Shown: positions 36,067 through 57,521 of the stretch, one piece after another
Numbering within the stretch: the first letter of the stretch is position 1
How the letters are laid out: every line of letters starts with the position of its first letter
From: an uncultured delta proteobacterium
GTDB taxonomy: Bacteria; Desulfobacterota; Binatia; Binatales; Binataceae
Direction: 5' to 3'
Length of the DNA stretch: 64,000 nt
NCBI GenBank assembly: GCA_963724765.1
Contig: CAVRVY010000004.1
Location: 1,408,001 to 1,472,000, forward strand
Program-made: the position numbers and the translations under genes
Notes under the pieces: generated by a model
Databases searched by the model: none
What the model was told of the DNA's origin: nothing
The model's input: only the letters and a program-made list of their open reading frames with translations

Positions 36067-36108
36067 TTCAACGAAAAGTGGAACCGCCTGACGTGAAAGC
36101 GTGAAAAG

Positions 36109-37197
36109 GTGAAATCTCCTTCGCCTGCATCGCCGCAGCTCGCGGCGGCCTACCGGATGCCGGCCGAATCGGCGCCGCATCTGGCGACCTACCTGGTATG
36201 GCCGCACAACCGCGACACGTGGCCGGGCAAGTTCGAGGCGATCCCGCCGGTGTTCGCCCGGATGGCGGCGGCAATCGCGGAGTTCGAGCCGCTGCGATTG
36301 CTGGTCGGCGACGAGGACATGGCCGAGGCGGCGCGCGAGACGATCCTTGCGACGGCAGGCCCGGCGGCGTGCCTGGATCGAATCGCTTTCACGATCGTTG
36401 CGACCAACGATTCATGGATTCGCGACCACGGACCGATCTTCATCAATCGTGCCGCTCCCGGCGATGCTCCTGCGCAGGTCGCGCTGGATTTCGGCTTCAA
36501 CTCGTGGGGCGAAAAATACGGCGCCTTCGATCTCGACGACGCGGTGCCGCGCCGGCTGGGCGAGCGATGGGGCTTCGAGGTCCTCGAGCCCCCGATGGTT
36601 CTCGAAGGCGGTTCGATCGACGTCGACGGCGCGGGCACCCTGCTCACCACCGAATCGTGTCTGCTCAATTCCAATCGCAATCCGGCGCTCGACCGCGCCG
36701 AGATCGAGCGGCGGCTCAAGTACTGGCTCGGCGTGAGCAGCGTGCTCTGGCTCGGAGAGGGAATCGCCGGCGACGACACCGACGGCCACGTCGACGACCT
36801 CGCGCGGTTCGTCGCTCCCGCAACGGTGGTGACCGTGATCGAGGACGACCCGCGCGACGAAAACCATCGCGTGCTCGCCGACAACCTTAAGCGGCTGAGA
36901 GCCATGCGCGACGCCGAGGGCCGAGCGCTCAAGATCGAGACGCTGCCGATGCCGCCCGCGCTGTTCCACGAAGGGACGCGCGTGCCGGCGTCGTACGCGA
37001 ACTTCTACATCTTAAATGCCGGCGTAATAGTGCCCACGTTCGATTGCCCGCAGGACGCGACCGCGATCGCCACGCTTGTCCGGCTATTCCCGGGGCGCCG
37101 CGTCGTCGGTATCCCGTCACACGACCTGGTCTGGGGCCTCGGTGCAGTCCACTGCCTTACCCAACAGCATCCGGTGCCACCGACCGCGCTCGCCTGA
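36109..37197 (+). CDS. aguA: Agmatine deiminase
   Basis: RMPAE..PH, D.WIRDHGP, FNSWG.KY, LEGGSI, DTDGHVD, SYANFY, GAVHCLTQQ. Confidence 0.95.
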   Translation: MKSPSPASPQLAAAYRMPAESAPHLATYLVWPHNRDTWPGKFEAIPPVFARMAAAIAEFEPLRLLVGDEDMAEAARETILATAGPAACLDRIAFTIVATNDSWIRDHGPIFINRAAPGDAPAQVALDFGFNSWGEKYGAFDLDDAVPRRLGERWGFEVLEPPMVLEGGSIDVDGAGTLLTTESCLLNSNRNPALDRAEIERRLKYWLGVSSVLWLGEGIAGDDTDGHVDDLARFVAPATVVTVIEDDPRDENHRVLADNLKRLRAMRDAEGRALKIETLPMPPALFHEGTRVPASYANFYILNAGVIVPTFDCPQDATAIATLVRLFPGRRVVGIPSHDLVWGLGAVHCLTQQHPVPPTALA

Positions 37198-37231: not shown

Positions 37232-38866
37232 CTATGGGAAAAAGCTCGGCGGCGCGGTTCTGACGAGCTCTGGAATTCCGTCCAGGCGCGCGGCAGACGA
37301 ACCGGCGCGCGCAAACAACGCGCATATCGGGTCGCGGTAGATCAGGCGCCATTCGGCCTGCGCCATCATCAGTATATAAGCGGCCGACCCGGTCGGCATC
37401 AGCACGAAATCGTTTGGGTAGGCGTCGAGGACGCGTGCGGCGCCCGGCTCCGCGTAGTTGATTGCGGCAAAAACGCTTTGCACCTGATGCGGATAGTAGG
37501 CCTCGAAAATGCTCTCAATGAAAATCTTCCAACGTGCGGCATCGTGGAAGAGCAGATAGTCGGCCCATCCGAAATCGCTCAGCACGTTGCCGTGGAAATC
37601 ATGCTCCTGCATGAAAGCCAGCGCGCCCACTGGCTTGGCTTCGACCGCGGGCAGCGCTTTCGATAGTAGCCCGGTGTGGATCGCAAAACCAACCGCCAGC
37701 ACGGCAAGTGCGGCGTGCAACGCTTGCCAAATCCGCACCGGGCGCGCCACGTCGGCACTCGATGGAGACCGCAGGCGATCGATGAGCAGATCGGCATGGC
37801 GGCAGAGCGGAATACAACAAGCGATCACGGCCAGCGCCGTGTTGCGTACGGCGTAAAGCGCGCTGACCGTCATCAGCGCCGCGACCGCGAACAAGGCGAG
37901 ATCGTCGGCACGTGGTGTGAGCGCGAAGGTAACCAGGAGCCCGGCCATGATTGCGAGTGCGGAGATGAAGGTGAACAGCGGCCGATGGTTGCGGTGAAAA
38001 TCGACCACGACCGCCAACAGCGAGCGGAACTCGGAGATATGGCGCAGCGTGAAGGGATTGCGCAGCACGCCGGCGATCACGATCCAGTCCTTCATCCCAT
38101 AGGGGTTGAGGAGCGTAGCCAGCGTCGCCGCCGAAGTCAGCGCCGCGAGCTCAATCGCGCGGCTGAGCCCGCGCCCCTCGGCCAGGTCCTGTGTTGCGCG
38201 CACCGCCGTGTACAGGCCCATCGCCACCAGGCCGACGAAGAACCCGCCGTGCAGATTGGTCCACAGGGCGAGCATCGGCACCGCGAGCCACAGCCGTGCG
38301 CTACGGCCATAGCTCTCGCGCGCGAACATCGCCATCAATGCGGCCAGGCAGACGTCGTCGGCGAGGAAGGTGCGAAACTGCATGTGCGCGATGATTGCGA
38401 ATGCCGCCGCCAGCAACGTCAGCCCTTGCACTATCAGCGCCGCTCCGGTCTCGGCCATCCCCAGCGACAGCAACACCATCACCGCCGCGACGCATGCGAA
38501 CTTGGCGAGTTTGAGCCCGACCACGCCGGCCACGTTGTACACCAGCGCCATCAGGACCTCGCCCAGCCAGTCCACCATGATCCAATCTCGCGGACCCGGG
38601 GGGCAGGCATACGACGACGGTGCGTGGAAGAAGAATTGATGCCGCGTGAGGACGATATTGCCGAAATGGATATGGCCCCAGAGATCGGTATCCGCGGCGC
38701 GCATCGCGTCGGCGATCACGATCGCGAACAGCACCACCCCAGGCGCGGAGCGCAGCAGCGAGCGGCCGGGCGGTTGCGAACCGGCTTCCGGCGGCGCGTC
38801 GATGGCAGCGCGGCGCGGCGATGATAGACCAGCGCTCCGCGGCGCCTGCTCAAGACTCCCCCCCAA
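37232..38866 (-). CDS. Polytopic membrane protein, GT-C-like (start uncertain)
   Basis: DTDLWGHIHFG loop after TM1, LWTNLHGGF, LLNPYG, about 11 TM helices. Confidence 0.75.
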   Translation of the reverse strand: MGGSLEQAPRSAGLSSPRRAAIDAPPEAGSQPPGRSLLRSAPGVVLFAIVIADAMRAADTDLWGHIHFGNIVLTRHQFFFHAPSSYACPPGPRDWIMVDWLGEVLMALVYNVAGVVGLKLAKFACVAAVMVLLSLGMAETGAALIVQGLTLLAAAFAIIAHMQFRTFLADDVCLAALMAMFARESYGRSARLWLAVPMLALWTNLHGGFFVGLVAMGLYTAVRATQDLAEGRGLSRAIELAALTSAATLATLLNPYGMKDWIVIAGVLRNPFTLRHISEFRSLLAVVVDFHRNHRPLFTFISALAIMAGLLVTFALTPRADDLALFAVAALMTVSALYAVRNTALAVIACCIPLCRHADLLIDRLRSPSSADVARPVRIWQALHAALAVLAVGFAIHTGLLSKALPAVEAKPVGALAFMQEHDFHGNVLSDFGWADYLLFHDAARWKIFIESIFEAYYPHQVQSVFAAINYAEPGAARVLDAYPNDFVLMPTGSAAYILMMAQAEWRLIYRDPICALFARAGSSAARLDGIPELVRTAPPSFFP

Positions 38867-39186: not shown

Positions 39187-39780
39187 TCAGGTTTGCGGTG
39201 GGCGCGATTTGGCCTCGGCGCGCCATTCGTTGTTGGTGCTGCGGTCGCCCGCAAGCCACTTGCGCAGGTCCTCATGCGCGCTGGCGGAGCGTTTGGCCGC
39301 AATCTTGTCGGCCGCGGGATGATCGACTGTGAACTCGAGGTTCAAACCATTAGGGTCGGTGACATAGAGCGACACGCAATAGCCATGGTCGATAACCATG
39401 GTCTCGTGGCCGGCGGCTTCGAGCCGGCGCTGCATCTCCTGCTGGCCGGGCGCGTCGGCCACCTTCAGCGCCAGGTGAACAAACGGTGAGTGCGGTCCGT
39501 AGTGCGCGAATTTTTCGTGCTGCTTGGGATTGGCGAAATGAAAGAACGCCAGCGCTCCGCCGTCGGCGATCTGGAAAAACAGATGGCAGTAATACAGTTC
39601 GTCCTCGCCGAACACCTTATCGCACTCGCGCCAGGCCGCGACCATCGGCCAGCCCAATATGTCCTCGTAAAACTTCCGCGTCTGCTCGAGGTCGCGGCAG
39701 ACGTAGGCCGCGTGATGCAGCCGCGTCGGAACCGTGTCCAGTTTGCCGCGCCCCTGACCGTTGGTTTGCGTTGTGCTCAT
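39187..39780 (-). CDS. VOC/glyoxalase-family protein
   Basis: RLHHAAY, FYEDILG, HLFF...DG..LAFF, HLAL, SLYVTDPNGLNLEFT. Confidence 0.92.
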   Translation of the reverse strand: MSTTQTNGQGRGKLDTVPTRLHHAAYVCRDLEQTRKFYEDILGWPMVAAWRECDKVFGEDELYYCHLFFQIADGGALAFFHFANPKQHEKFAHYGPHSPFVHLALKVADAPGQQEMQRRLEAAGHETMVIDHGYCVSLYVTDPNGLNLEFTVDHPAADKIAAKRSASAHEDLRKWLAGDRSTNNEWRAEAKSRPPQT

Positions 39781-39805
39781 GGTGATTTGCCCTCGTAACC
39801 CGTTT

Positions 39806-40378
39806 CTAATCCTTGTACCGGGCCTCGCGCAACGGGACTCGGCGGTCTGCCGGTTGTAGGTCCTGGCGCGCGGACCCAGCGTCCCGAACCGCGTCGGCGT
39901 CTAGGTTGCGCTTGATGCAATCGAGCTGCTCACGCAGCAGCGGTATTTTCTTGGGCGATATTCCTGCCAGCGCGACCTGGTTCACTTCCATCGCGTAGGG
40001 CAGCAGCACTTCGCGCAGCCGCCGGCCTTCGTCGGTGAGACGGATATTGACCTTGCGCCGGTCCTCGGAGTTGCGCGTGCGGCTAATAAGCCCGCGCCGC
40101 TCCATGCTTTCCAGCGCGGTCGCCGTGGTCGGCTCCATCATCCTCACCCGTCGGCTGAGCTCGCGCTGGGTAAGCCCGTCTTCCTCCCACAGCGCGCGCA
40201 GGAAGTACCACATCCCGATACTCACGCGATGCCTCGATACGCGCGCACCCAGGGCGCGGAGAAAGGCGCGATGGGTTTCGCGCACCAGGTAACCGACGCT
40301 CTGGTCGGGCGGAAAATCCGCGCCGGACTTCCGGGCCGGCGGCGCCGCCGCCTTGGAAGCCGCCGCCTTGGTCGTCAT
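39806..40378 (-). CDS. MarR-family transcriptional regulator (alternative start 40411)
   Basis: SVGYLVR, LWEEDGLTQRELS, MERRGLI.R....DRRK...LT..G. Divergent from the Rieske operon. Confidence 0.93.
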   Translation of the reverse strand: MTTKAAASKAAAPPARKSGADFPPDQSVGYLVRETHRAFLRALGARVSRHRVSIGMWYFLRALWEEDGLTQRELSRRVRMMEPTTATALESMERRGLISRTRNSEDRRKVNIRLTDEGRRLREVLLPYAMEVNQVALAGISPKKIPLLREQLDCIKRNLDADAVRDAGSARQDLQPADRRVPLREARYKD

Positions 40379-40533
40379 TGCTCTTCCATTGTTCACGCTA
40401 TGCCGGTTCATTTCTGCGCTTCGTTCAGCCCTTCGCGATCAACGCTTGTCGAAGACTCTGCCATAGCCCGCAGCATAGCAGGCGCTCCGCCCCGAGCTTA
40501 TGCGGTCTTGACGAATAGCCGGGAGGGGGACTA

Positions 40534-40587
40534 CTAAGAATACTTAGATATCTTTGCATTAGATATCCTGGCGTTTAGAAAGCTTGG
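40534..40587. promoter_or_regulatory. Tandem candidate MarR operators upstream of the Rieske operon
   Basis: CTTAG-ATAT-CTTTG (40543), ATTAG-ATAT-CCTGG (40558), TTTAG-AAAG-CTTGG (40574), plus a CTAAG half-site at 40534. Confidence 0.6.
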
Positions 40588-40652
40588 CATTTGGCGCACT
40601 TGCCTGCGAGCAAAGCTGACCGGCGCGCCGCCTTATTATACGGAGCGTTCAC

Positions 40653-41900
40653 GTGGAAGCAGTCGCGCAAAACTCCCCGAAAAATTCCCGTCGCTGGCCG
40701 CCCGAGGGTCTGGGCCGCGTCCCCTACTGGGTCTACAGCGATCCTGAGGTCTATGCCCTGGAGCAGACGCGCATTTTTTCCGGCCCGTACTGGAACTACG
40801 TCGCGCTCGAGGCTGAAATTCCGAAGCCCGGAGATTTTGTCCGCAGCCACGTCGGCGAACGCCCGGTAATCGTGGTGCGCGACAAGCACGGCGGTATCAA
40901 TGTAATGCTCAACCGCTGCGCCCATCGCGGCGTCCAGTTCTGCCGCGCCAACTGGGGCAACACGCGCTCATTCACCTGCCCCTACCACCAGTGGAGCTAC
41001 GATCTGAAGGGCAATCTCACCGGAGTGCCGTTTCGCCGCGGCGTCAACGAGAATGGCGGGATGCCCGGGGATTTCGATCCGTCGCAAAACGGGCTGACGC
41101 GCCTCGAGGTCGCGGCGCGCCACGGCGTGATCTTCGCCAGCTTCGATTCCGCCGTACCGCCGCTGGAGAAGTATCTCGGCCCCGCGATGCTGCCATATTT
41201 CGATCGCGTCTTCGACGGACGCGAGTTGCGCGTGCTCGGCTATTCGCGCCAGCGCATCCCCGCCAACTGGAAGCTGATGTTCGAGAACATCAAGGATCCC
41301 TATCACGCGAGCCTGCTCCACGTGTTCCTGGTCACCTTCGGCTTGTTCCGCGCCGACCAGCCCTCGGCGGTGAAGATGGACTCGAGCGGGATGCATTGCG
41401 TGCTCACCTCCAGCAAGGGCGAACAGAAGCTCAACGCGACCACCAAGGAAATGAAAAACTTCCGCGCCGACTTCAAGCTCAACGACCCGCGGCTACTCGA
41501 CCCGGTGCGCGAGTTTCCCGGCGCGGCCACGGTCGTGATGCAAACGCTGTGGCCCAACATCATCATCCAGCAGCAATCGAACACGCTCGCGATGCGCCAC
41601 CTGGTGCCGCGCGGCCCCGAACTCTTCGACCTGATGTGGACGTTCTTCGGCTATGCGAACGACACGCCTGAAATGACCCAGCGCCGCCTGCGCCAGGCGA
41701 ACCTGATGGGGCCCGCCGGACTGGTTTCGATCGACGACGGCGAGGTGATGGAGTTCTCGCAGCAGGGCGTCCGCCAGCGTCCCGGCGGCGCAGGCATGCT
41801 CGAGATGGGCGGTCGCGGCACGGACGACGAGGATCACATGGTGACCGAGGCGGCGATCCGCGCCTTCTACAAACATTACCGCGCGGTGATGGAGTTCTGA
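40653..41900 (+). CDS. Rieske ring-hydroxylating oxygenase alpha subunit, salicylate hydroxylase (NagG)-like
   Basis: CAHRG...CPYHQW Rieske motif, ENIKDPYHASLLH, QANLMGPAG.VS.DD, DHMVTE. Closely follows the NagG sequence pattern as I recall it. Confidence 0.93.
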   Translation: MEAVAQNSPKNSRRWPPEGLGRVPYWVYSDPEVYALEQTRIFSGPYWNYVALEAEIPKPGDFVRSHVGERPVIVVRDKHGGINVMLNRCAHRGVQFCRANWGNTRSFTCPYHQWSYDLKGNLTGVPFRRGVNENGGMPGDFDPSQNGLTRLEVAARHGVIFASFDSAVPPLEKYLGPAMLPYFDRVFDGRELRVLGYSRQRIPANWKLMFENIKDPYHASLLHVFLVTFGLFRADQPSAVKMDSSGMHCVLTSSKGEQKLNATTKEMKNFRADFKLNDPRLLDPVREFPGAATVVMQTLWPNIIIQQQSNTLAMRHLVPRGPELFDLMWTFFGYANDTPEMTQRRLRQANLMGPAGLVSIDDGEVMEFSQQGVRQRPGGAGMLEMGGRGTDDEDHMVTEAAIRAFYKHYRAVMEF

Positions 41901-41905
41901 TCCCG

Positions 41906-42400
41906 ATGGCGCGCGCGCAGCAGGACTTGCAAAACTTCGCCTTGCGGCTCGAAATCGAAGAGCTGTTCACCGAGTACGCTCACGCGCTGGACAACGGCGA
42001 GCTGGAGCAGTGGCCGGAGTTTTTCACCGACGATTGCCTCTATCAGATAGTCTCGCGCGAGAATCGTGAGCGCGCTCTGCCGCTCGCGCTGATGCGATGC
42101 GAGAGCAAGGCGATGCTGACCGATCGCGTGGTGACGATCCGCCAAACCCAGATGTTCGCGCCGCGCGCCCTGCGCCACCTGGTCAGTTCGCTCAGGATCG
42201 CACCCGCGACGGCCGACGGTGTCGACGTGCAGGCCAACTACGCCGTGCTGCAAACTCTGGTCGACGACGAAACCCGTATCCTGAGCGCGGGCCGTTATAT
42301 CGATACGCTCGTGCGCGACGGCGACGTGCTCAAATTCAAATCGCGGACCTGCGTGTACGACACCGTCTTGGTGCCGAACTCGCTGATTTATCCTCTATAA
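41906..42400 (+). CDS. Ring-hydroxylating oxygenase beta subunit (NagH-like)
   Basis: YA.ALD....E.WPEFF...C.Y....REN....LPL, ML.DRV, VYDT.LVPNSLIYPL. Confidence 0.93.
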   Translation: MARAQQDLQNFALRLEIEELFTEYAHALDNGELEQWPEFFTDDCLYQIVSRENRERALPLALMRCESKAMLTDRVVTIRQTQMFAPRALRHLVSSLRIAPATADGVDVQANYAVLQTLVDDETRILSAGRYIDTLVRDGDVLKFKSRTCVYDTVLVPNSLIYPL

Positions 42401-42475
42401 ACGAGCAGCCCCCTATAAGCGACGAACGCCACTGTGAACGATTATGCTATTGCAAATTTCCACTGAGGCGGCGCG

Positions 42476-43477
42476 ATGAACGTTCAGGCGCTATGGATAA
42501 CGGAGGCGGAGGTCGCCGCGCTCGTCGACATGGGCGATGCGATCGCGGCGCTGGAACGTGGGCTCTCGGCGGAGGCTGCGAGCGCCGCTGTCAACATGGT
42601 AAAGACTCATACCACGTTCGGCCATGACGACACGTTGCACGCGATCGGCGCAACGATGCTCGCCGAGGGCGTGGTCGGCACCAAGACCTGGGCACACACC
42701 GAGGGCGGCGCGAATCCGCTGCTGATCCTGTTCGACGCGCGCAACGGCCAGCTAATTGCAGTGATCGAAGCGTTCGCGCTGGGACAGTTGCGCACCGCGG
42801 CAATCAGCGGGCTCGCCACACGATGGCTCTCCGCGCCGGGAGCCTCCGAAATGGCGCTCATCGGCACGGGCAAACAGGCGCTCGCGCAGGTCGCGGCGAT
42901 CGCCGCGGTGCGCAAGCTGCGGCGCGTGCGGGTGGCCAGCCGCAATCCCGAAAACGCCGCGGCCTTCGCCAAGCGCGCGAGCGCGGAATTGAAATTGGAA
43001 GTCGAACCCGCCGCCACTATCGCCGCCGCCGTGAAGGACGCTGATATTATAACTTTGGTCACGCGCGCGACCGCGCCCTTTTTGCAATCCGCGATGGTCG
43101 CGCCGGGAGCGCATATCAATGCGGTCGGGGCCGTCGTGCCCGAGCGCGCAGAGTTCGAGCCGTCGATGCTCGCGCGATGCGCCGTCGTGGCGGCCGACAC
43201 CGTGCCAGGAGTGCGCGGCCTCTCGCGCGAATTCATCGAGTTCTTCGGCAACGACGATCGCGCGTGGGACGCCGTGCTCGCGCTCAGCCGCGTGATAGCG
43301 GCGGGCAAAGGTCGCCCAGCGGGAGCGGACCTGACGCTGTTCAAGGCGATGGGTATGGGAATTTCGGATCTCTCGATCGGCGTCGAAGTTCTGCGCCGCG
43401 CGCGCGCCAACAGCGTCGGACGGCCATTGGCTCCAACGCTTCGGGCCAAGCCGCGGCTCGGCGGCGGAAAAGCATAA
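42476..43477 (+). CDS. Ornithine cyclodeaminase / mu-crystallin family protein
   Basis: LFDA..G...A, LGQLRTAA.S, IGTGKQA, G.HINAVGA, T.FKAMGMG.SD. Confidence 0.9.
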   Translation: MNVQALWITEAEVAALVDMGDAIAALERGLSAEAASAAVNMVKTHTTFGHDDTLHAIGATMLAEGVVGTKTWAHTEGGANPLLILFDARNGQLIAVIEAFALGQLRTAAISGLATRWLSAPGASEMALIGTGKQALAQVAAIAAVRKLRRVRVASRNPENAAAFAKRASAELKLEVEPAATIAAAVKDADIITLVTRATAPFLQSAMVAPGAHINAVGAVVPERAEFEPSMLARCAVVAADTVPGVRGLSREFIEFFGNDDRAWDAVLALSRVIAAGKGRPAGADLTLFKAMGMGISDLSIGVEVLRRARANSVGRPLAPTLRAKPRLGGGKA

Positions 43478-43533
43478 ACCGGCGCCGGCTCACAGAATTC
43501 GGCGTCTAAAAATTCAAGTGCGAGGCAATACCA

Positions 43534-44622
43534 ATGAGCGAAAACAAATTCCGATTCGTCGATCGCAGCGGTTACGTCACTCCCAAGCTTGATCTGTGGC
43601 CATCGATCGTCATCTCCAAGGAAGAGATCGAAGCCGAGGTGAATCGGCTGGCGAGCCTGCCGCCACCGGCCAATGGACGGCGCCGCTCGCTCATCGTTCA
43701 TCCCAACGAAAACGGCACCGGCCTTGCCCCCGGCATCCAGGTCGCGCTCGACGTGCTCAAGCCGGGCGAGCGCACCAAGCCGATCCGCCACAACTCCTCG
43801 CAGGTCAACTTCTGCATCCGCGGCCGCGGACATGCGGTGGTCAACGGCAGGCAAATCAACTTCAGCCAGTACGACGTCTGGAACACGCCCTCGCTGAACG
43901 TCTACCAAAACTTCAACGATAGCGACGAGGTGCAGGTGCGGTTGACTTACAGCAACGCCGCGCTGCTGGAAAAGATGAACGCGCATATCGTCGAGGAAAA
44001 TCCGCCGGCCGAAGAGATCAAGGGCGAGGCCCCGTCCGGCGAGCCTGACGCGCGCCACGTCAACCCGTTCGGCACCTTCGCACTCAACAACGATGGCGCG
44101 TACCTGCTGCCCTACGAAAAGCTGATAAGTCCCGACGTGATCGAATCGCCCGTGCTGTTCTGGCCATGGCGTCAGGTCAAGGAGCATCTCGACAAGTTGC
44201 AGGCGCTCGGTTCGTCCTACGTCGGACGGCGCCTATACCTGCTGTATAACCCGGCCACCGGACGCACCAACGGCACGACGCACAACTTTTTCGCGACCAT
44301 GACTGTGCGTCCGCCGCACATCGTCGACAAACCGCATCGCCACGCCGCCGCCGCCATCAATTACTATTTCTCGGGCAGCGGCTACAGCACGGTGCAGGGC
44401 AAGGTACTGCCGTGGAAAGCGGGCGACCTGATGCTGTCGGCGCCGGGCTGGGCGGTCCACAATCACGCCTCGAACGACGAGCCAGTGTACGAACTGACTA
44501 TCCAGGACAGTCCGCTCCACATCGCGATGGATTCGCTGATGTGGCAGGAAGATCTGAAACATCCGGCACGCCTGTTGGGCTCGAGCTACGGCTTCGACAC
44601 CAACCGGGTCAAGGTCGCCTAG
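43534..44622 (+). CDS. Bicupin, gentisate/1-hydroxy-2-naphthoate 1,2-dioxygenase-like
   Basis: RRSL..HP, L.PGE....RH, C-terminal cupin HRH...PGWAVHNH, QD.PL. Confidence 0.8.
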   Translation: MSENKFRFVDRSGYVTPKLDLWPSIVISKEEIEAEVNRLASLPPPANGRRRSLIVHPNENGTGLAPGIQVALDVLKPGERTKPIRHNSSQVNFCIRGRGHAVVNGRQINFSQYDVWNTPSLNVYQNFNDSDEVQVRLTYSNAALLEKMNAHIVEENPPAEEIKGEAPSGEPDARHVNPFGTFALNNDGAYLLPYEKLISPDVIESPVLFWPWRQVKEHLDKLQALGSSYVGRRLYLLYNPATGRTNGTTHNFFATMTVRPPHIVDKPHRHAAAAINYYFSGSGYSTVQGKVLPWKAGDLMLSAPGWAVHNHASNDEPVYELTIQDSPLHIAMDSLMWQEDLKHPARLLGSSYGFDTNRVKVA

Positions 44623-44626
44623 CGTT

Positions 44627-45538
44627 ATGCTGGCGCTTAACCGGAATTTTCTTCGCGGCTCCTACCCTCCGCTGGTCACGCCGTTTCGCGGCGGCGCCGT
44701 GGAATACGACGCGTATGCGCGGATGGTCGCGCGACAGGTGGCCGAAGGCTCGCACGGAATCGTCGTCAACGGCACAACCGCCGAGCCGAGCACGCTCAGC
44801 ATCGACGAGCGCAACGAGTTGGTGCGGCTCGCGGTGCAAACCGCGCGCGGCCGCATCCCAGTCGTCGCCGCCACCGGCTCGCAATCGCATGCCGACACGA
44901 TTGAGCTCACCGCCGCCGCGCAAGAAGCGGGCGCCGACGCGGTCCTGGTCGTGACGCCATACTTCATCCGGCCGCCGCAGCGCGGCCTGGTCGAATACTA
45001 TGTCGATATCGGCCGGCGGACGCGGCTGCCGATGCTCATCTACCACATACCCGGACGCGCGGCGGTGAACGTCGAGGCCGCCACCATCGAGCGCATCGCC
45101 GAGCGCACCCCCAACCTGGTCGGGATGAAGCACGCGGCCAACGATCTCGCGCTGGTCACCCAGGTGCTCGCGCGGATGGGCAACGATTTCCGCATCTTCG
45201 TCGGATTGGAAGAGCTGAGTTTTCCGATGATGGCGATCGGCGCGTGCGGCCTGATGAATGCCGCGGGCAACTTGAAACCCGGGGCGCTCGCGCAGATGTG
45301 CGAGGACGTATTCGCCGAGCGTCTCGCGCCGGCACGCACCGCGCACGACGCGCTGTTCGAGCTCAACCAGGCGATCTTCTTCGACACCAATCCCACGCCG
45401 CTCAAATACATGATGAAACGGATGGGGCTGCTCGAAACCGAGGAACATCGTCTGCCGATGATGCCGGCGACGCCGGAGCTCGCCGCGCGGCTTGACGGCG
45501 TGCTTACGCGAGCCGGCCTGATTGGAGCAAATGCCTGA
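44627..45538 (+). CDS. DapA-family aldolase (HpaI-like, probably catabolic)
   Basis: RGSYPPLVTPF, NGTTAE, YHIPGR, GMKHA (Schiff-base Lys), TNP.PLK. Confidence 0.88.
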   Translation: MLALNRNFLRGSYPPLVTPFRGGAVEYDAYARMVARQVAEGSHGIVVNGTTAEPSTLSIDERNELVRLAVQTARGRIPVVAATGSQSHADTIELTAAAQEAGADAVLVVTPYFIRPPQRGLVEYYVDIGRRTRLPMLIYHIPGRAAVNVEAATIERIAERTPNLVGMKHAANDLALVTQVLARMGNDFRIFVGLEELSFPMMAIGACGLMNAAGNLKPGALAQMCEDVFAERLAPARTAHDALFELNQAIFFDTNPTPLKYMMKRMGLLETEEHRLPMMPATPELAARLDGVLTRAGLIGANA

Positions 45539-45569
45539 TCGGGGCAAATGCGTGATTGGAGTGAGTTGA

Positions 45570-46703
45570 ATGAGCAGGGACAAAGGCGCGGACGAACCTC
45601 GGCGCAAAACCAATCCGCTCTTCAACGACCGCAAGCTCAAGCTCGGCACGTTCTCGAGCAACCTGAGCCACGGATGCGCGATCACCACGATCGATGGCGT
45701 GCTGAAGGCCGACTGGCAGAGCACGCTCACGCTGGCACGGCTCGCGGATGAGATGGAGTTCGAGGCCCTGGTGCCGGTCGGCCGCTGGAAGGGCTTCGGC
45801 GGCGTGACGAATTTCAATGGCGCCGGCTTCGAGCCGTACACCTGGGCCGCCGCGATCGGCGCCGCGACAAAATATCCAGCCGTCTTCGCGACCTCGCACG
45901 TGCCGACGATGCATCCGATCATGGCCGCCAAGCAGGCGACGACCATCGATCACGTCACCGGCGGCCGCTTCGCGCTCAACGTCGTCACCGGATGGTTTCT
46001 GCCGGAGATCGAGATGTTCGGCGCGCCGCAGATGGATCACGATCTTCGGTACGATTGCGCAGTCGAGTGGCTCGACATCATCAAGCGCCTCTGGACCGAG
46101 GACGAGGAATTCGACTACAGCGGCAAGTACTACCAGATTAAAAAGGGGATTCTGCGTCCCAAGCCGATCCAGGCGCCATATCCGGTCGTCATGAATGCGG
46201 GCGGTTCGGACAAGGGGCGGCACTACGCGGCCAAATATTGCGACGTGGCGTTCGTCATTTTCGATCCCGACGATGCCGCCGGCGCCAGAGCCCGAGTCAG
46301 GAGCTATCGGGAACTTGCGCAGCGGGAATACGGCCGCGACCTCCAGTTGTGGACCGCCGCCTACGTGGTCCAGGGAGAGACGGAAAAGGCGGCCCGGGAT
46401 TTCTTCGATTACTACGTCCATCAAAAAGGCGATTGGGTCGCGGTGACCAACCTGGTCGAAACCATGGGCATCAACGCGAAAATTCTGCCGCCTGAGACGT
46501 TGCGATCGATGAAGACCCACTTCATCGCGGGATGGGGCGGCTATCCGCTCGTCGGCACCAACGAACAGATCGTCGAAGGGCTGGAGCGGCTATCCGAGAT
46601 GGGTCTCGATGGCGCGGTGCTTTCGTGGCCGCGTTATATCGAGGGTATGCGGCAATTCAAACAGGAAATCATGCCGCTCGTGAGGCAGGCTGGGCTTCGT
46701 TAG
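45570..46703 (+). CDS. Luciferase-like (LLM) flavin-dependent monooxygenase
   Basis: E.LVPVGRWKGFGG, HP..AAKQ..TIDH..GGRF.LN.V.GW, NAGGS..G..YAA. Confidence 0.92.
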   Translation: MSRDKGADEPRRKTNPLFNDRKLKLGTFSSNLSHGCAITTIDGVLKADWQSTLTLARLADEMEFEALVPVGRWKGFGGVTNFNGAGFEPYTWAAAIGAATKYPAVFATSHVPTMHPIMAAKQATTIDHVTGGRFALNVVTGWFLPEIEMFGAPQMDHDLRYDCAVEWLDIIKRLWTEDEEFDYSGKYYQIKKGILRPKPIQAPYPVVMNAGGSDKGRHYAAKYCDVAFVIFDPDDAAGARARVRSYRELAQREYGRDLQLWTAAYVVQGETEKAARDFFDYYVHQKGDWVAVTNLVETMGINAKILPPETLRSMKTHFIAGWGGYPLVGTNEQIVEGLERLSEMGLDGAVLSWPRYIEGMRQFKQEIMPLVRQAGLR

Positions 46704-46727
46704 AACGCGCGCAAGGAGAAATTTCGG

Positions 46728-48233
46728 ATGTCTGACGCGAGCCAACAAACGCAACCGTCGCAACCATCAATCGACCAAAGAGAACTGGTCGCTTCAATTC
46801 CGCGCGACCTCTACTACTCGGGCGGCTGGCACGCCGCCGCCGAGGGCGCTCGCACCGAGGTCTGGAGCCCCTCGACGGGACAATCGCTGGGCAAGGTCGC
46901 GTGGGCCGGAGCGGAGGATGTCGATCGCGCCGTGCGCGCGGCACATGCGGCGTTCTTCCAGTGGCGGGACGTGAAGCCGCTCGAGCGCGCGAAAATCCTG
47001 CGCGAGGTCGCTGCGCTGCTGCGCCGGCACGGACGCGAACTCGCGCTCATCGACGCCGCCGATTGCGGCAACCCGATCGCCGAGATGATAAACGACTCGG
47101 CCATCGGGGCCGCCAGCGTGGAATACTTCGCCGGCCTGGTCTCCGAGGTCAGAGGCAGCACCATCCCGATGGGCCCCGGCGTGCTGAACTACACGCTGCG
47201 CGAGCCTTTGGGAGTGATCGCTCGTATCAACGCATTCAACCATCCATTGTTGTTCGCCGCGATGCGCACTGGCGCACCGCTCGCCACCGGCAACACCCTG
47301 ATCGTCAAGCCGCCCGAACAGGCGCCGCTATCCTCACTGCGATTCGCGGAGCTTGTCGGACCGCTTTTTCCGTCCGGCGTGTTCTCCGTGCTTCCGGGCG
47401 GGCGCGAGTGCGGCGCCGCACTGACGGCGCATCCGTTGGTCGCGAAGGTTGGGCTTATCGGTTCGGTACCGACGGGAAAAGCGATCATGCGGGCGTCGGC
47501 CGATTCGCTCAAGAAGGTGGCGCTCGAACTCGGCGGCAAGAATGCGCTGATTGCCTATCCTGACGCCAACCCCGACAAAGTGGCCGCCGGAATCATCCGC
47601 GGGATGAACTTCACCTGGTGCGGTCAATCCTGCGGCTCGACCAGCCGCGCCTTCGTGCACGAGACGATCCACGACGCGGTGCTGGAGCGTGTGGTCGCCG
47701 CGGCACGCGCGATAAAACCCGGCATCCCTACCGAACAGAGCACCGCGATGGGCAGTCTGATTAGCAAGGAGCAGTTCGACAAGGTCACGCGCTACATCGG
47801 TTACGGCGTCGAGGACGGCGCGCGGCTGGTCGCCGGTGGCAAATCGCCGCAGGATGCGCATCTCAGCAAGGGCTTCTTCATCGAGCCGACCATTTTCGCC
47901 GACGTCACGTCGAAGATGCGAATTGCACGCGAGGAAATCTTCGGCCCGGTGCTCAGCGTGTTTCGATGGTCGGATGAAGCCGAGATGCTGCGGGCCGTCA
48001 ATGACGTCGAATATGGTCTGACGGCTTCGATCTGGACGCGCGACCTTGCCACCGCGCATCGTACCGCCGCGCGCGTCGAAGCCGGCTACGTATGGGTCAA
48101 CTCATCGAGCGCCCATTATCTGGCCGCCCCGTTCGGCGGTTATAAGCAGTCGGGCGTGGGCCGGGAAGAGTCGATCGAAGAAATGATGGACGCCACGCAA
48201 ATCAAGAACGTGCACGTCGAGTTCGATGCCTGA
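46728..48233 (+). CDS. Aldehyde dehydrogenase, PhdK (2-carboxybenzaldehyde dehydrogenase)-like
   Basis: LELGGKN, GMNFTWCGQSCGSTSR (PhdK-like signature), EEIFGPV, PFGGYKQSG.GRE. Confidence 0.92.
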   Translation: MSDASQQTQPSQPSIDQRELVASIPRDLYYSGGWHAAAEGARTEVWSPSTGQSLGKVAWAGAEDVDRAVRAAHAAFFQWRDVKPLERAKILREVAALLRRHGRELALIDAADCGNPIAEMINDSAIGAASVEYFAGLVSEVRGSTIPMGPGVLNYTLREPLGVIARINAFNHPLLFAAMRTGAPLATGNTLIVKPPEQAPLSSLRFAELVGPLFPSGVFSVLPGGRECGAALTAHPLVAKVGLIGSVPTGKAIMRASADSLKKVALELGGKNALIAYPDANPDKVAAGIIRGMNFTWCGQSCGSTSRAFVHETIHDAVLERVVAAARAIKPGIPTEQSTAMGSLISKEQFDKVTRYIGYGVEDGARLVAGGKSPQDAHLSKGFFIEPTIFADVTSKMRIAREEIFGPVLSVFRWSDEAEMLRAVNDVEYGLTASIWTRDLATAHRTAARVEAGYVWVNSSSAHYLAAPFGGYKQSGVGREESIEEMMDATQIKNVHVEFDA

Positions 48234-48978
48234 CGCTGGCGTGCCGGCGCTGGAGAACGCCTCGGACGTGATCGTCGAGCTTGTAGCGGCGAACCATATC
48301 CTGTTCGACCAGGGCGTGGTCGACGGATTCGGGCATGTCAGCGTCCGCCATCCGACGGAGAGTGGCCGGTTCCTGCTAGCGCGCAGTATCGCGCCGGCGC
48401 TCGTCATGGCGGCCGACATCATGGAGTTCGACCTCGACGGGAATCCACTCGACGCCGGCGGCCGCGCGGTCTATCTCGAGCGCTTCATCCATAGCGAAAT
48501 CTACCGCACGCGGCCGGACGCAGGCGCGGTGGTCCATAGTCATTCGCCGGCGGTCGTGCCCTTCAGCGTGGCTAAACACGTGCCGCTGCGTGCCGTCTGG
48601 CATCTCGGGGGAGTTCTGGGCGAAGGCTGTCCGGTCTTTGAGATCCGTACGGCCGCCGGGCCGGCGACCGATATGCTAATCCGCGATCGCGGCCTGGGAG
48701 CAGCCCTGGCCAAATCGCTCGGGCGAGGATCGGTGGTGCTGATGCGCGGACACGGCTGCACGGTTGTGGGATCGACCGTGCGCCACGCGGTTTTCAACGC
48801 GGTCTATACGGAGGTAAGCGCCGCGCTGCAGTCCGAGGCAATGCGATTAGGCACCGTGATCTATCTTACGCGCGAGGAGGCTGAAGCCGCCGCGGCCTGC
48901 AACGCCGCGCAGATCGATCGGTCCTGGGAGTTGTGGAGAATGCGAGCGGAGCGCCAACGGCTTCAGCCCCAGACCTGA
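48226..48978 (+). CDS. Class II aldolase/adducin family protein (decarboxylase-like)
   Basis: ANHIL...GVVD.FGHVSVRHP, ERFIHSEIY..RPD..AVVHSHS, LMRGHG. Confidence 0.9.
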   Translation: MPDAGVPALENASDVIVELVAANHILFDQGVVDGFGHVSVRHPTESGRFLLARSIAPALVMAADIMEFDLDGNPLDAGGRAVYLERFIHSEIYRTRPDAGAVVHSHSPAVVPFSVAKHVPLRAVWHLGGVLGEGCPVFEIRTAAGPATDMLIRDRGLGAALAKSLGRGSVVLMRGHGCTVVGSTVRHAVFNAVYTEVSAALQSEAMRLGTVIYLTREEAEAAAACNAAQIDRSWELWRMRAERQRLQPQT

Positions 48979-50114
48979 CGCGCCGTTTCTACGATCAGTT
49001 CCAGCTTGCGCTTTTGATCGTCCTCGCTGACCAGATTGCCGACGAACTCCGAAGCGAAGCCGCACTGCGGGCTCAACGCCAGTTGTTCGAGCGCGACGTA
49101 GTGGCTGGCTTCGTCGATTCGCCGCTTCAGATCGTCAATCGTTTCAAGTTGCGCCACCTTGGTGCTGACCAACCCGAGCACAATCGTCTTGCCGCTGGGC
49201 ACGAAGCGCAGCGGTTCGAAGCCGCCGGCGCGCGGCGAATCGTACTCGAGCAGGAAGCGATCGTGGTTCAGTTCGTTGAACAGCATCTCCGCGATCGCGT
49301 CGTAAGCGCCCTCGCGATGCCACATGCTGCGCTGGTTTCCGCGGCACAAATGAATTCCGAAGGTCACATCGCCGAAGCCGCGGATCAGATCGTTGTCGGC
49401 TCTGAGCGAACGCTTGAAATTGAGTATCGGATCTTCACCGCGTTCTCGCATCGCGTCGAGTGACGGACCGTCTACGTAGGCGGTGTAGCCGGGCGCATCG
49501 ATATGAACGTAGCGGCATCCCGCGGCGGCGAGGCCCGCGATCATCGCGCGCTCGACCTCGACCACATCGGCGAGAAAATTCTCCATCGCCGGGTAAACAT
49601 GCGCGGAGTTGGCAAGGTCGACGCGCTGCGAAATGCGATCGGGTCCGATCAATGTAACCTTGACCGGCTTGCGCGCGACCGCGGCCGCGTAGCCGTACTC
49701 CTCGAGCACCAGGTTGCGCCTAAGCCGCAGCCGCTCGACCACGCGCTGGCGCTGCACCACGGGCGTTCCCTTGCGCTGTTCAACGCCGAGCGGAAGCTCG
49801 AAACGCTGGAGCGGTTTCGCTCTCGAAGTCCGCTGGTCGTAGAAATCGAGCGTCGCCTGTCCGCGGTCGTAGCCCGAAACCGCTTCGCCGAAGCTGTCCT
49901 GGAAATTGAGCCGGCGAAACTCGCCGTCGGTGACGACGTCGAGTCCGATCTGCTCCTGCAAGCGGATCGCGCGATCGACGGATTCGTTTTCGGCCGCGCG
50001 AAATTCGAGCGCGTCGATCTCGCCGCGCTCGTAGCGAAGCCGGGCCTGCCCCAGCGCCTCGGGCCGCAGCAGGCTGCCGACGACGTCGGTGCGGATGCGG
50101 CCGAAGCGATTCAT
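48963..50114 (-). CDS. Cobalamin-independent methionine synthase II family protein (single-barrel MetE-like, YxjH type)
   Basis: VVGSLLRP, VTDGEFRR, HLCRGN, LEYD..R.G.FEPL, LSPQCGF Zn ligands. Confidence 0.9.
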   Translation of the reverse strand: MNRFGRIRTDVVGSLLRPEALGQARLRYERGEIDALEFRAAENESVDRAIRLQEQIGLDVVTDGEFRRLNFQDSFGEAVSGYDRGQATLDFYDQRTSRAKPLQRFELPLGVEQRKGTPVVQRQRVVERLRLRRNLVLEEYGYAAAVARKPVKVTLIGPDRISQRVDLANSAHVYPAMENFLADVVEVERAMIAGLAAAGCRYVHIDAPGYTAYVDGPSLDAMRERGEDPILNFKRSLRADNDLIRGFGDVTFGIHLCRGNQRSMWHREGAYDAIAEMLFNELNHDRFLLEYDSPRAGGFEPLRFVPSGKTIVLGLVSTKVAQLETIDDLKRRIDEASHYVALEQLALSPQCGFASEFVGNLVSEDDQKRKLELIVETARQVWG

Positions 50115-50879
50115 CTAGATGAACGCAAGGCCACCATCGCAGTTGATCGTCTGGCCGGTGATGAAGCCGGCGTCGTCCGAAGCGAGGAATGCCGCCACGC
50201 CGACCAGGTCCGCCGGCGTTTCGTGATGCTTGAGGCACTGCGCCTTGAGCATCGCCTCCTTCTGTTCCGGGGTGACGGTGGCACGCGCGATCTCGGTGTA
50301 AACCGGTCCCGGCGTGATCGCATTGACGCGCACGTTGAACTCGCCGAGCTCGCGCGCCATCGCACGCGTCAGGCCGAGCACTCCGGCCTTGGACGCCATG
50401 TAGTGCGCGTAGCCCGGACGGGCCAGCATATAGGCCGCCGACGAGATGTTCACGATCGCCCCGCTCTTCTGCTCGCGCATCGGTGCGCTGCACGCCTTGC
50501 CCGCGAGCCACACGCCCTTGAGGTTGACCGCCATCAGGCCGTCCCATTCGGCGACGCTCATTTCCCAAAACGGCTTCATCTGGATGGTCGAGAAAATCGC
50601 CGCGTTGTCGATCAGCACGTCGACGTGGCCGAACGCTTTCAGCGCCTCGTCGACCATCTGCTTGCACGACGGCTCGCTGGAGACGTCGGTGGTGCAAAAG
50701 ATAGCGTTGGCGCCGGAGTCGGTGACCTCGGCCAGCACGCCGCGGCCCTTGTCCGCGTTGACGTCGGCCAGCACCACGTTGCATCCCTCGTCGCGGAACC
50801 GGCGCGTGTACGCGCGTCCGATACCTTGAGCGGCGCCAGTCACGATTACGGTTTTGCCTGCCAATCCGTTTAGAGGCAT
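50115..50879 (-). CDS. SDR oxidoreductase
   Basis: TGAAQGIG, DNAA, HYMASKAG, FITGQ...DGG. Stop abuts the ATG of the MetE-like gene. Confidence 0.93.
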   Translation of the reverse strand: MPLNGLAGKTVIVTGAAQGIGRAYTRRFRDEGCNVVLADVNADKGRGVLAEVTDSGANAIFCTTDVSSEPSCKQMVDEALKAFGHVDVLIDNAAIFSTIQMKPFWEMSVAEWDGLMAVNLKGVWLAGKACSAPMREQKSGAIVNISSAAYMLARPGYAHYMASKAGVLGLTRAMARELGEFNVRVNAITPGPVYTEIARATVTPEQKEAMLKAQCLKHHETPADLVGVAAFLASDDAGFITGQTINCDGGLAFI

Positions 50880-50965
50880 GGGTCACACTTCCTTTGAGCG
50901 ATAAGTTGGTTCGCCCGCGGGCACATTACCTCGGGTTTTGCACAGCGCTTAAGCACCTGGAAAAC

Positions 50966-50981
50966 ACTTAGCAATCTAAGT
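50966..50981. promoter_or_regulatory. Perfect palindrome ACTTAG-N4-CTAAGT, candidate MarR operator of the SDR-MetE-like operon
   Basis: ACTTAG CAAT CTAAGT, about 90 nt upstream of the SDR start. Same consensus as the sites at 40543-40587. Confidence 0.7.
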
Positions 50982-56846: not shown

Positions 56847-56876
56847 GGATATCTCCTGCAAAGGGGATGCGCGCTT

Positions 56877-57347: not shown

Positions 57348-57521
57348 ATTTTCTCCTGTCTAAATGGCGGAGCAGTGATGCTATAGAAGAGTCTTTATCC
57401 GGGAAGTTGAGAAAAAAGGCAAAGCTCGCGCGCCATCTTCCCGGAACTTGAGAGCGGCCTCATACGGCTCAGGCGAATTCTGACCAGCCCAAATGCCGCA
57501 GCGGCGCGGAGGAGGTCCCCG

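Follow-up and report, generated by a model that had tools for sequence, protein, structure and literature searches.

To which catabolic route does a gene cluster belong that places a Rieske oxygenase of the NagG family beside an OCD/mu-crystallin-family oxidoreductase, a bicupin, a DapA-like lyase and an aldehyde dehydrogenase (ALDH)? The question is posed by a locus in a 64,000-nucleotide stretch of DNA (here called the window) of contig CAVRVY010000004.1, from an uncultured delta proteobacterium of the family Binataceae. The genome carrying the operon is a 5.4 Mb assembly in four contigs, and its nearest relatives are metagenome-assembled genomes (MAGs) labelled Candidatus Binataceae or "uncultured delta proteobacterium". 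An earlier reading of the DNA letters alone (the original prediction) had proposed an undescribed route for an amino-substituted, N-heterocyclic or bicyclic aromatic acid. In our assessment, there is about an even chance that the cluster is an operon under MarR control that handles an aromatic carboxylic acid and is organized around a widespread ring-fission module. The core enzyme set is probably the signature of a new route. The core genes, in window coordinates, are the following.

40653-41900, + strand: Rieske oxygenase alpha subunit of the NagG/AndAc/PicB/TphA2 aryl-carboxylate family
41906-42400, + strand: Rieske oxygenase beta subunit (Pfam Ring_hydroxyl_B and SnoaL_4)
42476-43477, + strand: OCD/mu-crystallin-family NAD(P)-dependent oxidoreductase (Pfam OCD_Mu_crystall, PF02423, 150 bits)
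43534-44622, + strand: divergent bicupin with the fold of salicylate/gentisate 1,2-dioxygenases (predicted model and invariant His motif)
44627-45538, + strand: DHDPS-family class I lyase, DapA-like (TIGR02313 and dapA models)
46728-48233, + strand: NAD(P)-dependent ALDH (Pfam Aldedh, 500 bits)

Every gene named in the original prediction was recovered, at its position and in its orientation, in the open reading frame (ORF) listing and in Pfam and NCBIfam scans between 39187 and 50879, and the labels "NagGH-like" and "bicupin dioxygenase" hold at the family level. Eight + strand genes, from the Rieske alpha gene through those for a luciferase-like flavin-dependent monooxygenase (LLM) and the ALDH to that for a class II aldolase-like protein, are spaced by -8 to 75 bp. 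They lie divergent from the genes for a VOC-family protein and a MarR-family regulator on the - strand, and a MetE-like gene and an SDR gene, both on the - strand and 0 bp apart, converge on the + strand operon.

The evidence that carries the module comes from gene neighborhoods. Loci anchored on the bicupin were collected from 27 genome, 42 metagenome and 11 plasmid or chromid records (three of the last analyzed as loci), giving 59 loci after de-duplication. The close set comprises 28 loci, with a bicupin at least 85% identical and with two frameshifted relatives counted in; the distant set comprises 31 loci, with a bicupin 46-81% identical. The counts use loci with enough flanking DNA, and neighbors in high-GC loci were identified by tblastn and Pfam. 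The co-conservation that the original prediction had called for is present in close, species-level Binataceae relatives: the Rieske alpha gene is kept in 20/20 loci, the DapA-like gene follows the bicupin gene in 18/19, and the genes for LLM, ALDH and the class II aldolase-like protein occur together in 14/15. The OCD gene lies within 6 kb of the bicupin gene, mostly immediately upstream, in 14/26 close and 16/28 distant loci. Distant loci further carry a DapA-type lyase gene after the bicupin gene (14/26), HpaH or HpaI in its place (4/31), a CMD-family protein of about 185 residues (11/28) and a NagG-family alpha subunit of at least 45% identity (5/25). Among the 25 distant loci with both flanks, OCD and lyase genes are both found in 11, OCD only in five, a lyase only in seven and neither in two. 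As 23 of these 25 loci have OCD and/or a lyase, the conserved core is the bicupin together with OCD and/or a pyruvate-forming lyase. The core pairs recur in varied gene orders across at least five phyla, the distant lineages including Vulcanimicrobiota/Eremiobacterota, Acidimicrobiales, Actinomycetes, Acidiferrobacteraceae, Brevundimonas, Ralstonia, Paraburkholderia and Cupriavidus. The remaining window genes form a Binataceae-specific shell. The original prediction had treated the whole gene set as one catabolic cluster, of which only a part belongs to the conserved core: the LLM, class II aldolase-like, MetE-like, SDR, VOC and MarR genes are lineage-specific, and the combination of LLM, ALDH and class II aldolase-like genes is found in 0/21 distant loci. 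Two loci deserve separate mention. A metagenome contig of a close relative (L050, 6192-9083; bicupin 86% identical) has Rieske alpha, Rieske beta and bicupin genes only, with no OCD, DapA-like, LLM, ALDH or class II aldolase-like gene within 8 kb downstream. In a MAG contig (L009), several cluster genes are partial in tblastn, which fits assembly frameshift errors and not true gene decay.

Cultured carriers show the module in other company. In Brevundimonas guildfordensis the gene order is CMD-OCD-bicupin-HpaH-HpaI-succinate-semialdehyde-type ALDH, with HpaH (355.5 versus 351.5 bits) and HpaI (386.3 versus 368.8 bits) above their NCBIfam equivalog cut-offs. The megaplasmid of Ralstonia solanacearum strain B2 encodes an HsaA/C2-like two-component flavin monooxygenase, a flavin reductase and SnoaL, followed by CMD-OCD-bicupin-hpaH-hpaI-succinate-semialdehyde dehydrogenase (SSADH)-ALDH-SDR, where hpaH and hpaI are the annotated names. 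Paraburkholderia largidicola has the bicupin, a DapA-type "2,4-dihydroxyhept-2-ene-1,7-dioic acid aldolase", CMD and OCD, then a porin, transporters and an esterase, and a VanA-like oxygenase with a PDR reductase upstream of the module. On plasmid pBB1 of Cupriavidus necator N-1, a single strand carries genes for a reductase, SnoaL, HpaH (446 bits), HpaI (402 bits), LysR, a Rieske ferredoxin, an FAA-hydrolase-family protein, OCD, the bicupin, Rieske beta, Rieske alpha (50% identical to the window alpha subunit) and an ABC transporter; both HpaH and HpaI scores are at or above the equivalog cut-offs. A metagenome locus (L081) shows the order Rieske alpha (75% identical)-beta-CMD-OCD-bicupin-DapA, and NagG-family Rieske genes are linked to the OCD-bicupin pair in Binataceae, in L081 and in C. 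necator N-1. The CMD-family partner takes its name from an atlas label ("CMD family"), its best PDB match being to a CMD-family entry at E 0.13. This cross-phylum synteny backs the succession of cupin cleavage, DapA-family lyase and ALDH contained in the original prediction. As a separate observation, an NMT1/THI5-like substrate-binding protein of about 330 residues adjoins the module in six loci (L021, L029, L032, L037, L065 and L076; 48-58% mutual identity); its Paraburkholderia counterpart is annotated as an ABC substrate-binding protein, and it may be an uptake component for the pathway substrate.

The lower homoprotocatechuate pathway is one known system that these neighborhoods recall. 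In Brevundimonas and Ralstonia the OCD-bicupin pair has HpaH and HpaI, at or above cut-off, and a succinate-semialdehyde-type ALDH as neighbors; in C. necator N-1 HpaH and HpaI share its strand block, and the best model of the window DapA-like protein is TIGR02313. Unlike that pathway, HpaD, HpaE, HpaF and HpaG are neither annotated nor detected in the stretches examined, which have the bicupin, OCD and often the CMD-family protein instead, and the window DapA-like protein stays below the TIGR02313 cut-off of 396.7. The presence of HpaH, HpaI and the succinate-semialdehyde-type ALDH beside the pair points to a nitrogen-free lower pathway for a C7 dicarboxylate rather than to deamination.

The bicupin is proposed to be the ring-cleaving enzyme on the basis of a predicted structure. 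Its AlphaFold model (pLDDT 85.6), searched with Foldseek, is nearest to the salicylate 1,2-dioxygenase of Pseudaminobacter salicylatoxidans (2phd; TM 0.71/0.74, E 6e-22). The top 14 ranks are all salicylate and gentisate 1,2-dioxygenases (TM 0.65-0.71), and the next fold class, consisting of other bicupins, follows at E of about 1e-14 with TM below 0.5. The residues H268-R269-H270 and H309-N310-H311 are invariant in 25 homologues, and the resulting HRH...H motif aligns with the HRH...H of the solved enzymes, giving a 3-His type site. In contrast to salicylate 1,2-dioxygenase, with which the window protein shares 16-17% sequence identity, it carries the conserved His motif in its C-terminal cupin domain, the N-terminal domain having IRH at the equivalent position; this is also the opposite cupin domain to that used by E. 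coli-type enzymes. Scores against named enzymes are low: 58 bits to the gentisate dioxygenase structure 3bu7, 62.6 bits versus a cut-off of 442.1 on TIGR02272 (gentisate dioxygenase), 77.2 bits versus 650 on NF049978 (MabB), and about 30% identity to canonical gtdA over 109-136 residues, within one domain. Dioxygenases of the salicylate/gentisate 1,2-dioxygenase fold cleave o-hydroxybenzoates between C1 and C2 to yield a C7 2-oxo-dicarboxylate, and salicylate 1,2-dioxygenase cleaves salicylate directly to a C7 2-oxo-dienedioate. In the titles and abstracts of the literature searched, no downstream pathway is described for the product of salicylate 1,2-dioxygenase.

The Rieske alpha subunit has the CxH...CxxH and DPYHxxxxH motifs of the Rieske center and the Fe ligands, and matches the salicylate 5-hydroxylase NagG (PDB 7c8z) at 506 bits and terephthalate dioxygenase-type structures at 337-338 bits. 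On the AndAc model it scores 458 bits, under the cut-off of 750, and the beta subunit scores 170 bits on the AndAd model, under the cut-off of 230. Arg315 is aligned to NagG R323, and the TPADO paper describes the equivalent arginine as a family-wide carboxylate anchor (PMC9060491). A terephthalate-type substrate was also considered; the position of Ser243 in TPADO and Met257 in NagG is Leu251 here, which lends no support to a second carboxylate site and is not decisive (PMC9060491). Identity is 55% to annotated NagG and 57% to alpha subunits that Azospirillum and Tistrella encode in canonical nag-type clusters (gtdA, maiA and an FAH gene), loci that carry every nag partner: ferredoxin, reductase, gentisate dioxygenase, GST isomerase and FAH hydrolase. 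Alpha subunits 47-52% identical to that of the window adjoin xanthine-dehydrogenase-family genes, to which Variovorax adds 2,5-dihydroxypyridine dioxygenase and amidohydrolase genes, and these clusters are putatively of the picolinate type. In a maximum-likelihood tree of 22 rows, the window alpha subunit falls outside both the NagG/Hyb clade (99/99) and the pic-like clade (100/100) and groups loosely with other alpha subunits adjoining the same bicupin; placement in a single clade with these is not rejected (p-AU 0.315), nor is it shown. By these scores and this tree, the alpha subunit belongs to the NagG family and lies outside the NagG clade.

The OCD protein is the only conserved NAD(P) oxidoreductase of the module. 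Its match to PF02423 extends over residues 9-309, and Pfam adds a weak match of the Shikimate_DH-type Rossmann kind. The Rossmann motif GxGxxA is conserved as GTGKQA at 130-135, and the Lys/Arg of GTKTW and GQLRT, which we take to bind a carboxylate, are kept in the subfamily. The nearest structures are ketimine and pyrroline-2-carboxylate reductases (94-98 bits). No named equivalog is reached among the 13 NCBIfam models compared (cyclodeaminase, ketimine or pyrroline-2-carboxylate reductase, alanine dehydrogenase, BhcD, EutC and SbnB), all of which score under cut-off, the best at 156 bits versus 417. The original prediction had assigned to this protein an imine-reducing or deaminating step, an assignment that loses ground here: the OCD gene is missing in 12/26 close loci, and in the genome assemblies of five OCD-less relatives, which may be incomplete, no match was found anywhere (E<=1e-20). 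OCD is therefore an optional member of the operon. Apart from these loci, a Rhodococcus sp. JS3073 plasmid (L099, 476-10029) has a 44% identical bicupin homologue about 7 kb from an adjacent pair of OCD (46%) and DapA-like (35%) genes and an LLM-like gene on the opposite strand, an arrangement in which the OCD-DapA link may also exist apart from the bicupin.

The DapA-like protein is proposed to act as a C7 2-oxo-acid (hydratase-)aldolase that releases pyruvate. Its best model is TIGR02313, a DapA-type HpaI (293.6 bits), and on the dapA model TIGR00674 it scores 251.8 bits, above the cut-off of 206.15. TT50-51, Y112, Y139, R144 and K168 are present, which presumably correspond to the catalytic positions of E. 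coli DHDPS. Two better dapA genes occur elsewhere in the genome (362.8 and 352.3 bits), and this copy sits in a catabolic operon; judged by these scores, it is not the lysine-pathway dapA of the genome. The original prediction had likened the protein to PhdJ. In the PhdI/PhdJ/PhdK route for 1-hydroxy-2-naphthoate, a cupin performs 1,2-cleavage of an o-hydroxy carboxylate, a DHDPS-superfamily hydratase-aldolase releases pyruvate and an ALDH follows. The cleavage-lyase-ALDH logic is shared, OCD-less variants of the module fitting best; the likeness is one of reaction scheme and not of sequence. Unlike in that route, the OCD partner has no counterpart, and the best 60 of 124 structure matches of the DapA-like protein in the PDB are all DHDPS, with NahE/PhdJ types not among them; among these best matches and the models scored, true DHDPS and TIGR02313 are nearest.

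What is observed are the gene families, the fold, the motifs and the co-conservation; from these the following substrate and chemical steps are proposed. The NagG-family Rieske oxygenase, served by a ferredoxin and a reductase encoded elsewhere, would hydroxylate an aryl carboxylate to an ortho-hydroxy aromatic carboxylate; as the substrate of ring fission we rank 2,3-dihydroxybenzoate or salicylate above gentisate, which is less likely. The bicupin would cleave the C1-C2 bond to give a C7 2-oxo-enedioate. In an optional third step, the OCD enzyme would use NAD(P)H to reduce the far end of the fission product at the carbon next to the new carboxylate, with the C3=C4 enone left intact. The DHDPS-like class I enzyme, or HpaH and HpaI in other bacteria, would then hydrate and cleave the intermediate to pyruvate and a C4 acid-aldehyde. 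The ALDH is proposed to oxidize this aldehyde to a C4 dicarboxylate. Where OCD has acted, this acid would be succinate or malate; where OCD is lacking, it would be fumarate or oxaloacetate. HpaH plus HpaI and the DHDPS-like enzyme would be interchangeable, either forming pyruvate from a 2-oxo-3/4-enoate or a 4-hydroxy-2-oxo acid before the ALDH acts.

The role proposed for OCD is suggested by the formulas. The fission product of a salicylate-type substrate (C7H6O5) would be exactly one two-electron reduction away from the substrate of HpaH (C7H8O5). As the C3=C4 enone must be spared for the hydratase, the hydride would be placed at the distal carbon beside the new carboxylate, which is, by analogy, the same position relative to the carboxylate that the OCD family reduces in alpha-imino acids. 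With 2,3-dihydroxybenzoate as the substrate, the target would be an alpha-keto carbon and the end product malate; with salicylate, the hydride would go to a C=C terminus and the route would end in succinate. Because the lyase and the ALDH would, without OCD, still lead to oxaloacetate or fumarate, its loss from many loci would be explained. In addition, a C4 hydratase is sensible only if C4 is not yet oxygenated; at least for the carriers of HpaH, this speaks against maleylpyruvate and hence against gentisate. Two neighboring enzymes, an ortho-hydroxylating flavin monooxygenase in Ralstonia and a VanA-like one in Paraburkholderia, are suggestive of a catecholic substrate such as 2,3-dihydroxybenzoate. 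Tentatively, and with more doubt than assurance, the OCD-bicupin-lyase set may be regarded as a new central ring-fission pathway for o-hydroxy aromatic carboxylates in at least five phyla, in which an OCD-family enzyme has been recruited to reduce a nitrogen-free fission product (C=O or C=C next to a carboxylate) and the DHDPS-like protein serves as a catabolic C7 hydratase-aldolase. Judged by titles and abstract openings, full-text searches of the literature turned up no description of an OCD-bicupin-lyase module and, as the original prediction had expected, no characterized pathway matching the cluster gene for gene, most subscription journals lying outside the coverage.

Several observations weigh against the reading of the cluster as an operon built on such a module. 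No ferredoxin or reductase gene is linked to the cluster, and ferredoxin-like matches in the window genome are weak ones only. All named OCD relatives in the searches act on C=N or amines, and we know of no OCD-family enzyme that reduces C=C or C=O. About half of the close relatives lack OCD, and in these the pathway must do without this enzyme. A profile search found no HpaH above cut-off in the window genome, so that the DapA-like enzyme would have to perform the hydration as well, and no CMD-family homologue was found there with one protein query. The remaining points concern gentisate: the nearest characterized Rieske relatives, at 55-57% identity, are gentisate-forming salicylate 5-hydroxylases; source databases automatically name the bicupin "gentisate 1,2-dioxygenase"; and in C. 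necator N-1 the FAA-hydrolase-family gene next to OCD scores best on a model for a 2,4-diketo-acid hydrolase (195 bits, under cut-off), which would suit a maleylpyruvate-type product.

These last points lead to the rival that survives best, a variant gentisate pathway, which we consider unlikely. Here the Rieske enzyme would be a salicylate 5-hydroxylase, the bicupin a divergent gentisate 1,2-dioxygenase, and maleylpyruvate would be handled without nagL or nagK; either OCD would reduce the 4-oxo group and the DapA-like enzyme give pyruvate and 4-oxobut-2-enoate for the ALDH, or the latter, as a Schiff-base enzyme, would cleave the 2,4-diketo acid directly, the DapA-like protein being meant. 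The 506-bit match of the alpha subunit to NagG, its 57% identity to alpha subunits sitting with gtdA, maiA and an FAH gene, the fold and automatic name of the bicupin and the FAA-hydrolase-family gene beside OCD in C. necator N-1 all agree with this, as do FAD_binding_3 hydroxylases near the OCD-bicupin pair in three loci (L022, L030 and L034), a class to which we take the known 3-hydroxybenzoate 6-hydroxylases to belong. It is opposed by HpaH, a C4 hydratase that would have no role if C4 were already oxygenated, beside the pair in three cultured carriers, by the exclusion of the window alpha subunit from the NagG clade, and by the bicupin, which scores far under the gentisate model and has its His motif in the other cupin domain. 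The nag pathway itself (NagAaGHAb, NagI, NagL and NagK) resembles the cluster in a Rieske alpha/beta pair of the same family followed by a ring-cleaving bicupin of the same fold. In contrast to nag, no ferredoxin, Rieske reductase, GST-type isomerase (nagL) or FAH hydrolase (nagK) is found among the cluster ORFs and the flanking ORFs of at least 200 residues scanned at 20-64 kb, which bears out the absence of nagL and nagK noted in the original prediction; a class I lyase and an ALDH stand downstream instead. On the features compared, the cluster appears to be a member of none of these pathways, defining features of them having been looked for and found missing.

A nitrogen-bearing substrate, the idea at the center of the original prediction, is quite improbable. 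In this version, also the boldest form of the new-pathway proposal, fission of an amino-substituted ring, for example an amino-substituted salicylate, would lead to an alpha-enamine or imino diacid that OCD reduces, and the DHDPS-like enzyme would run backwards to pyruvate and aspartate semialdehyde, which the ALDH would convert to aspartate. The named OCD relatives are all imine- or amine-acting, and the DapA-like protein passes the dapA cut-off and keeps the DHDPS Arg, presumed to bind the carboxylate of the aldehyde. Moreover, a hydroxypyridine-dicarboxylate decarboxylase is the nearest match of the decarboxylase-like protein of the operon, RutA is that of the LLM, and the 47-52% identical alpha subunits sit in putative picolinate-type clusters. 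Against this, HpaH and HpaI beside the pair in three cultured carriers, and the succinate-semialdehyde-type ALDH in two of them, indicate nitrogen-free C7 intermediates; close relatives can do without OCD; no deaminase, amidase or aminotransferase gene was found in the operon by Pfam scan; and the nitrogen-free HpaI-type TIGR02313 outscores dapA. An aza-gentisate substrate (3,6-dihydroxypicolinate) was set aside by reasoning only, as a pyruvate-forming lyase needs carbon where the ring nitrogen would be.

It is slightly more improbable still that OCD acts before ring cleavage, as an NAD+-dependent dehydrogenase that re-aromatizes a Rieske cis-dihydrodiol in place of TphB or BenD. The gene does directly follow the Rieske beta gene in the window and in three other loci (L020, L056 and L081), its weak Shikimate_DH-type Rossmann match would suit a dehydrogenase, and the family members TphA2 and AndAc are true dioxygenases according to the TPADO paper (PMC9060491). 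However, the OCD-bicupin pair stands without a NagG-family Rieske gene in most distant loci, the neighboring hydroxylase in Ralstonia is a two-component flavin monooxygenase that makes no dihydrodiol, and OCD-less relatives retain the Rieske genes. Least probable, and barely credible, is a co-inheritance within one genus of genes from unrelated pathways: the LLM, class II aldolase-like, MetE-like and SDR genes are indeed confined to Binataceae loci, but the + strand genes are tightly packed or overlapping and the core pairs recur in at least five phyla with varied gene orders, and the cluster is not a chance mosaic.

Around the core lie the accessory and regulatory features.

39187-39780, - strand: VOC/glyoxalase-family protein, single domain, 197 residues (Pfam Glyoxalase, 50.5 bits)
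39806-40411, - strand: MarR-family regulator (Pfam MarR, 44.9 bits)
40507-40560, no strand: putative promoter/operator-like block (conserved columns in an alignment of 8 relatives)
45570-46703, + strand: LLM (Pfam Bac_luciferase, 175 bits)
48226-48978, + strand: class II aldolase/adducin-fold protein (201 bits to PDB 2z7b)
48963-50114, - strand: MetE C-terminal-domain-like protein (Pfam Meth_synt_2)
50115-50879, - strand: SDR (Pfam adh_short_C2, 216 bits)

The VOC gene adjoins the MarR gene in close relatives (84-99% identity), where the MarR gene is also kept; on the HpaR model, MarR scores 47.6 bits, under the cut-off of 121. The mean column identity of the marR-Rieske intergenic region is 57%. 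Within it, CTTGAC at 40507-40512 is invariant in 8/8 relatives, and so is an AT-rich, partly palindromic block at 40532-40560 with repeated CTT(T/G)GCATT half-sites, except column 40557; position 40561 also varies, and 40539-40560 forms an imperfect palindrome. From the conservation of these letters, CTTGAC and the palindromic block may be a promoter and a MarR operator. A scan for sigma-70 promoters and terminators gave nothing exceeding shuffled controls.

Among the accessory enzymes, the LLM is found in Binataceae loci only within the 59-locus set. Among solved structures it comes nearest to RutA (126 bits) and SfnG (111 bits), and on curated models it reaches 173.7 bits versus a cut-off of 383 for SfnG and 140.1 versus 498 for RutA, so that its Pfam assignment stands at the family level only. 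The ALDH is a generic member of its family, with best scores of 475 bits for BADH and 415 bits for HpaE, both under cut-off, and homologues of 50-52% identity follow the bicupin-DapA genes in two loci (L034 and L073). The class II aldolase-like protein matches PDB 2z7b at 201 bits (E 2e-58) and the PhtC model at 79.8 bits, under the cut-off of 200, and thus appears most like an aromatic o-hydroxy-dicarboxylate decarboxylase. HMPDdc (2Z7B, from vitamin B6 catabolism) and PhtC (from Gram-positive phthalate catabolism) both remove a carboxyl ortho to a ring hydroxyl. Unlike in their pathways, no other vitamin B6 or phthalate gene is present in the cluster. A 2025 report identifies 2z7b as an Mn(II)-dependent 3-hydroxy-2-methylpyridine-4,5-dicarboxylate decarboxylase (PMC11841055). 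The MetE-like protein scores 276 bits on PRK06520, short of the cut-off of 313, and 201 bits to PDB 1ypx, and a 70% identical homologue stands directly upstream of the OCD-bicupin pair in a Binataceae locus (L029). Many generic SDR models match the SDR, which is 91-98% identical in close relatives. The presumed task of the LLM, the decarboxylase-like protein, the SDR, the MetE-like protein and the VOC protein is to tailor substituted precursors, through oxidation of side chains, decarboxylation or demethylation.

The flanking ORFs scanned have a housekeeping look and are unrelated to aromatic catabolism, with CN-hydrolase and agmatine deiminase-type genes upstream, RluA and two-component system genes downstream, and LexA and ammonium transporter genes also present. 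The CN-hydrolase gene forms a pair with a Porphyromonas-type peptidyl-arginine deiminase-family gene (35197-37197, + strand) that resembles agmatine deiminase plus N-carbamoylputrescine amidase, and relatives keep this pair upstream of the cluster. An ORF of 544 residues lies between the agmatine deiminase-type gene and the VOC gene (37232-38866, - strand) with zero Pfam or NCBIfam matches, whose site in relatives holds one to three tandem paralogues of 42-81% identity; as this frame is more conserved than the overlapping + strand ORF at 37676-38824, the true gene is probably the one on the - strand. A small ferredoxin-NADP reductase-like protein (31715-32446, - strand; FAD_binding_6 and NAD_binding_1) is encoded 8 kb upstream of the operon, and no evidence was found that it serves the Rieske oxygenase. 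Further downstream, at 55686-63628, a possible second catabolic group comprises two acyl-CoA dehydrogenases, a "Cyclase" family protein (57522-58373), an enoyl-CoA hydratase and an LLM monooxygenase (62570-63628).

Central routes of aromatic ring fission are few and well catalogued, namely the catechol, protocatechuate, gentisate, homogentisate, homoprotocatechuate and hydroxyquinol routes. If the new-pathway proposal is true, the module would add one more, in which a divergent dioxygenase of the salicylate/gentisate type works with an OCD-family reductase and a lyase that is either DHDPS-like or HpaH/HpaI. For the OCD/mu-crystallin family this would be a first role in the breakdown of aromatics. 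It would also correct a common automatic annotation, many such bicupins being named "gentisate 1,2-dioxygenase" in source databases. The module is carried by peat and soil lineages (Binataceae, Vulcanimicrobiota/Eremiobacterota and Acidimicrobiales) as well as by culturable Paraburkholderia, Cupriavidus and Brevundimonas, and the existence of culturable carriers makes the hypothesis directly testable. The route would thereby matter for how soils turn over phenolic acids of plant and lignin origin.

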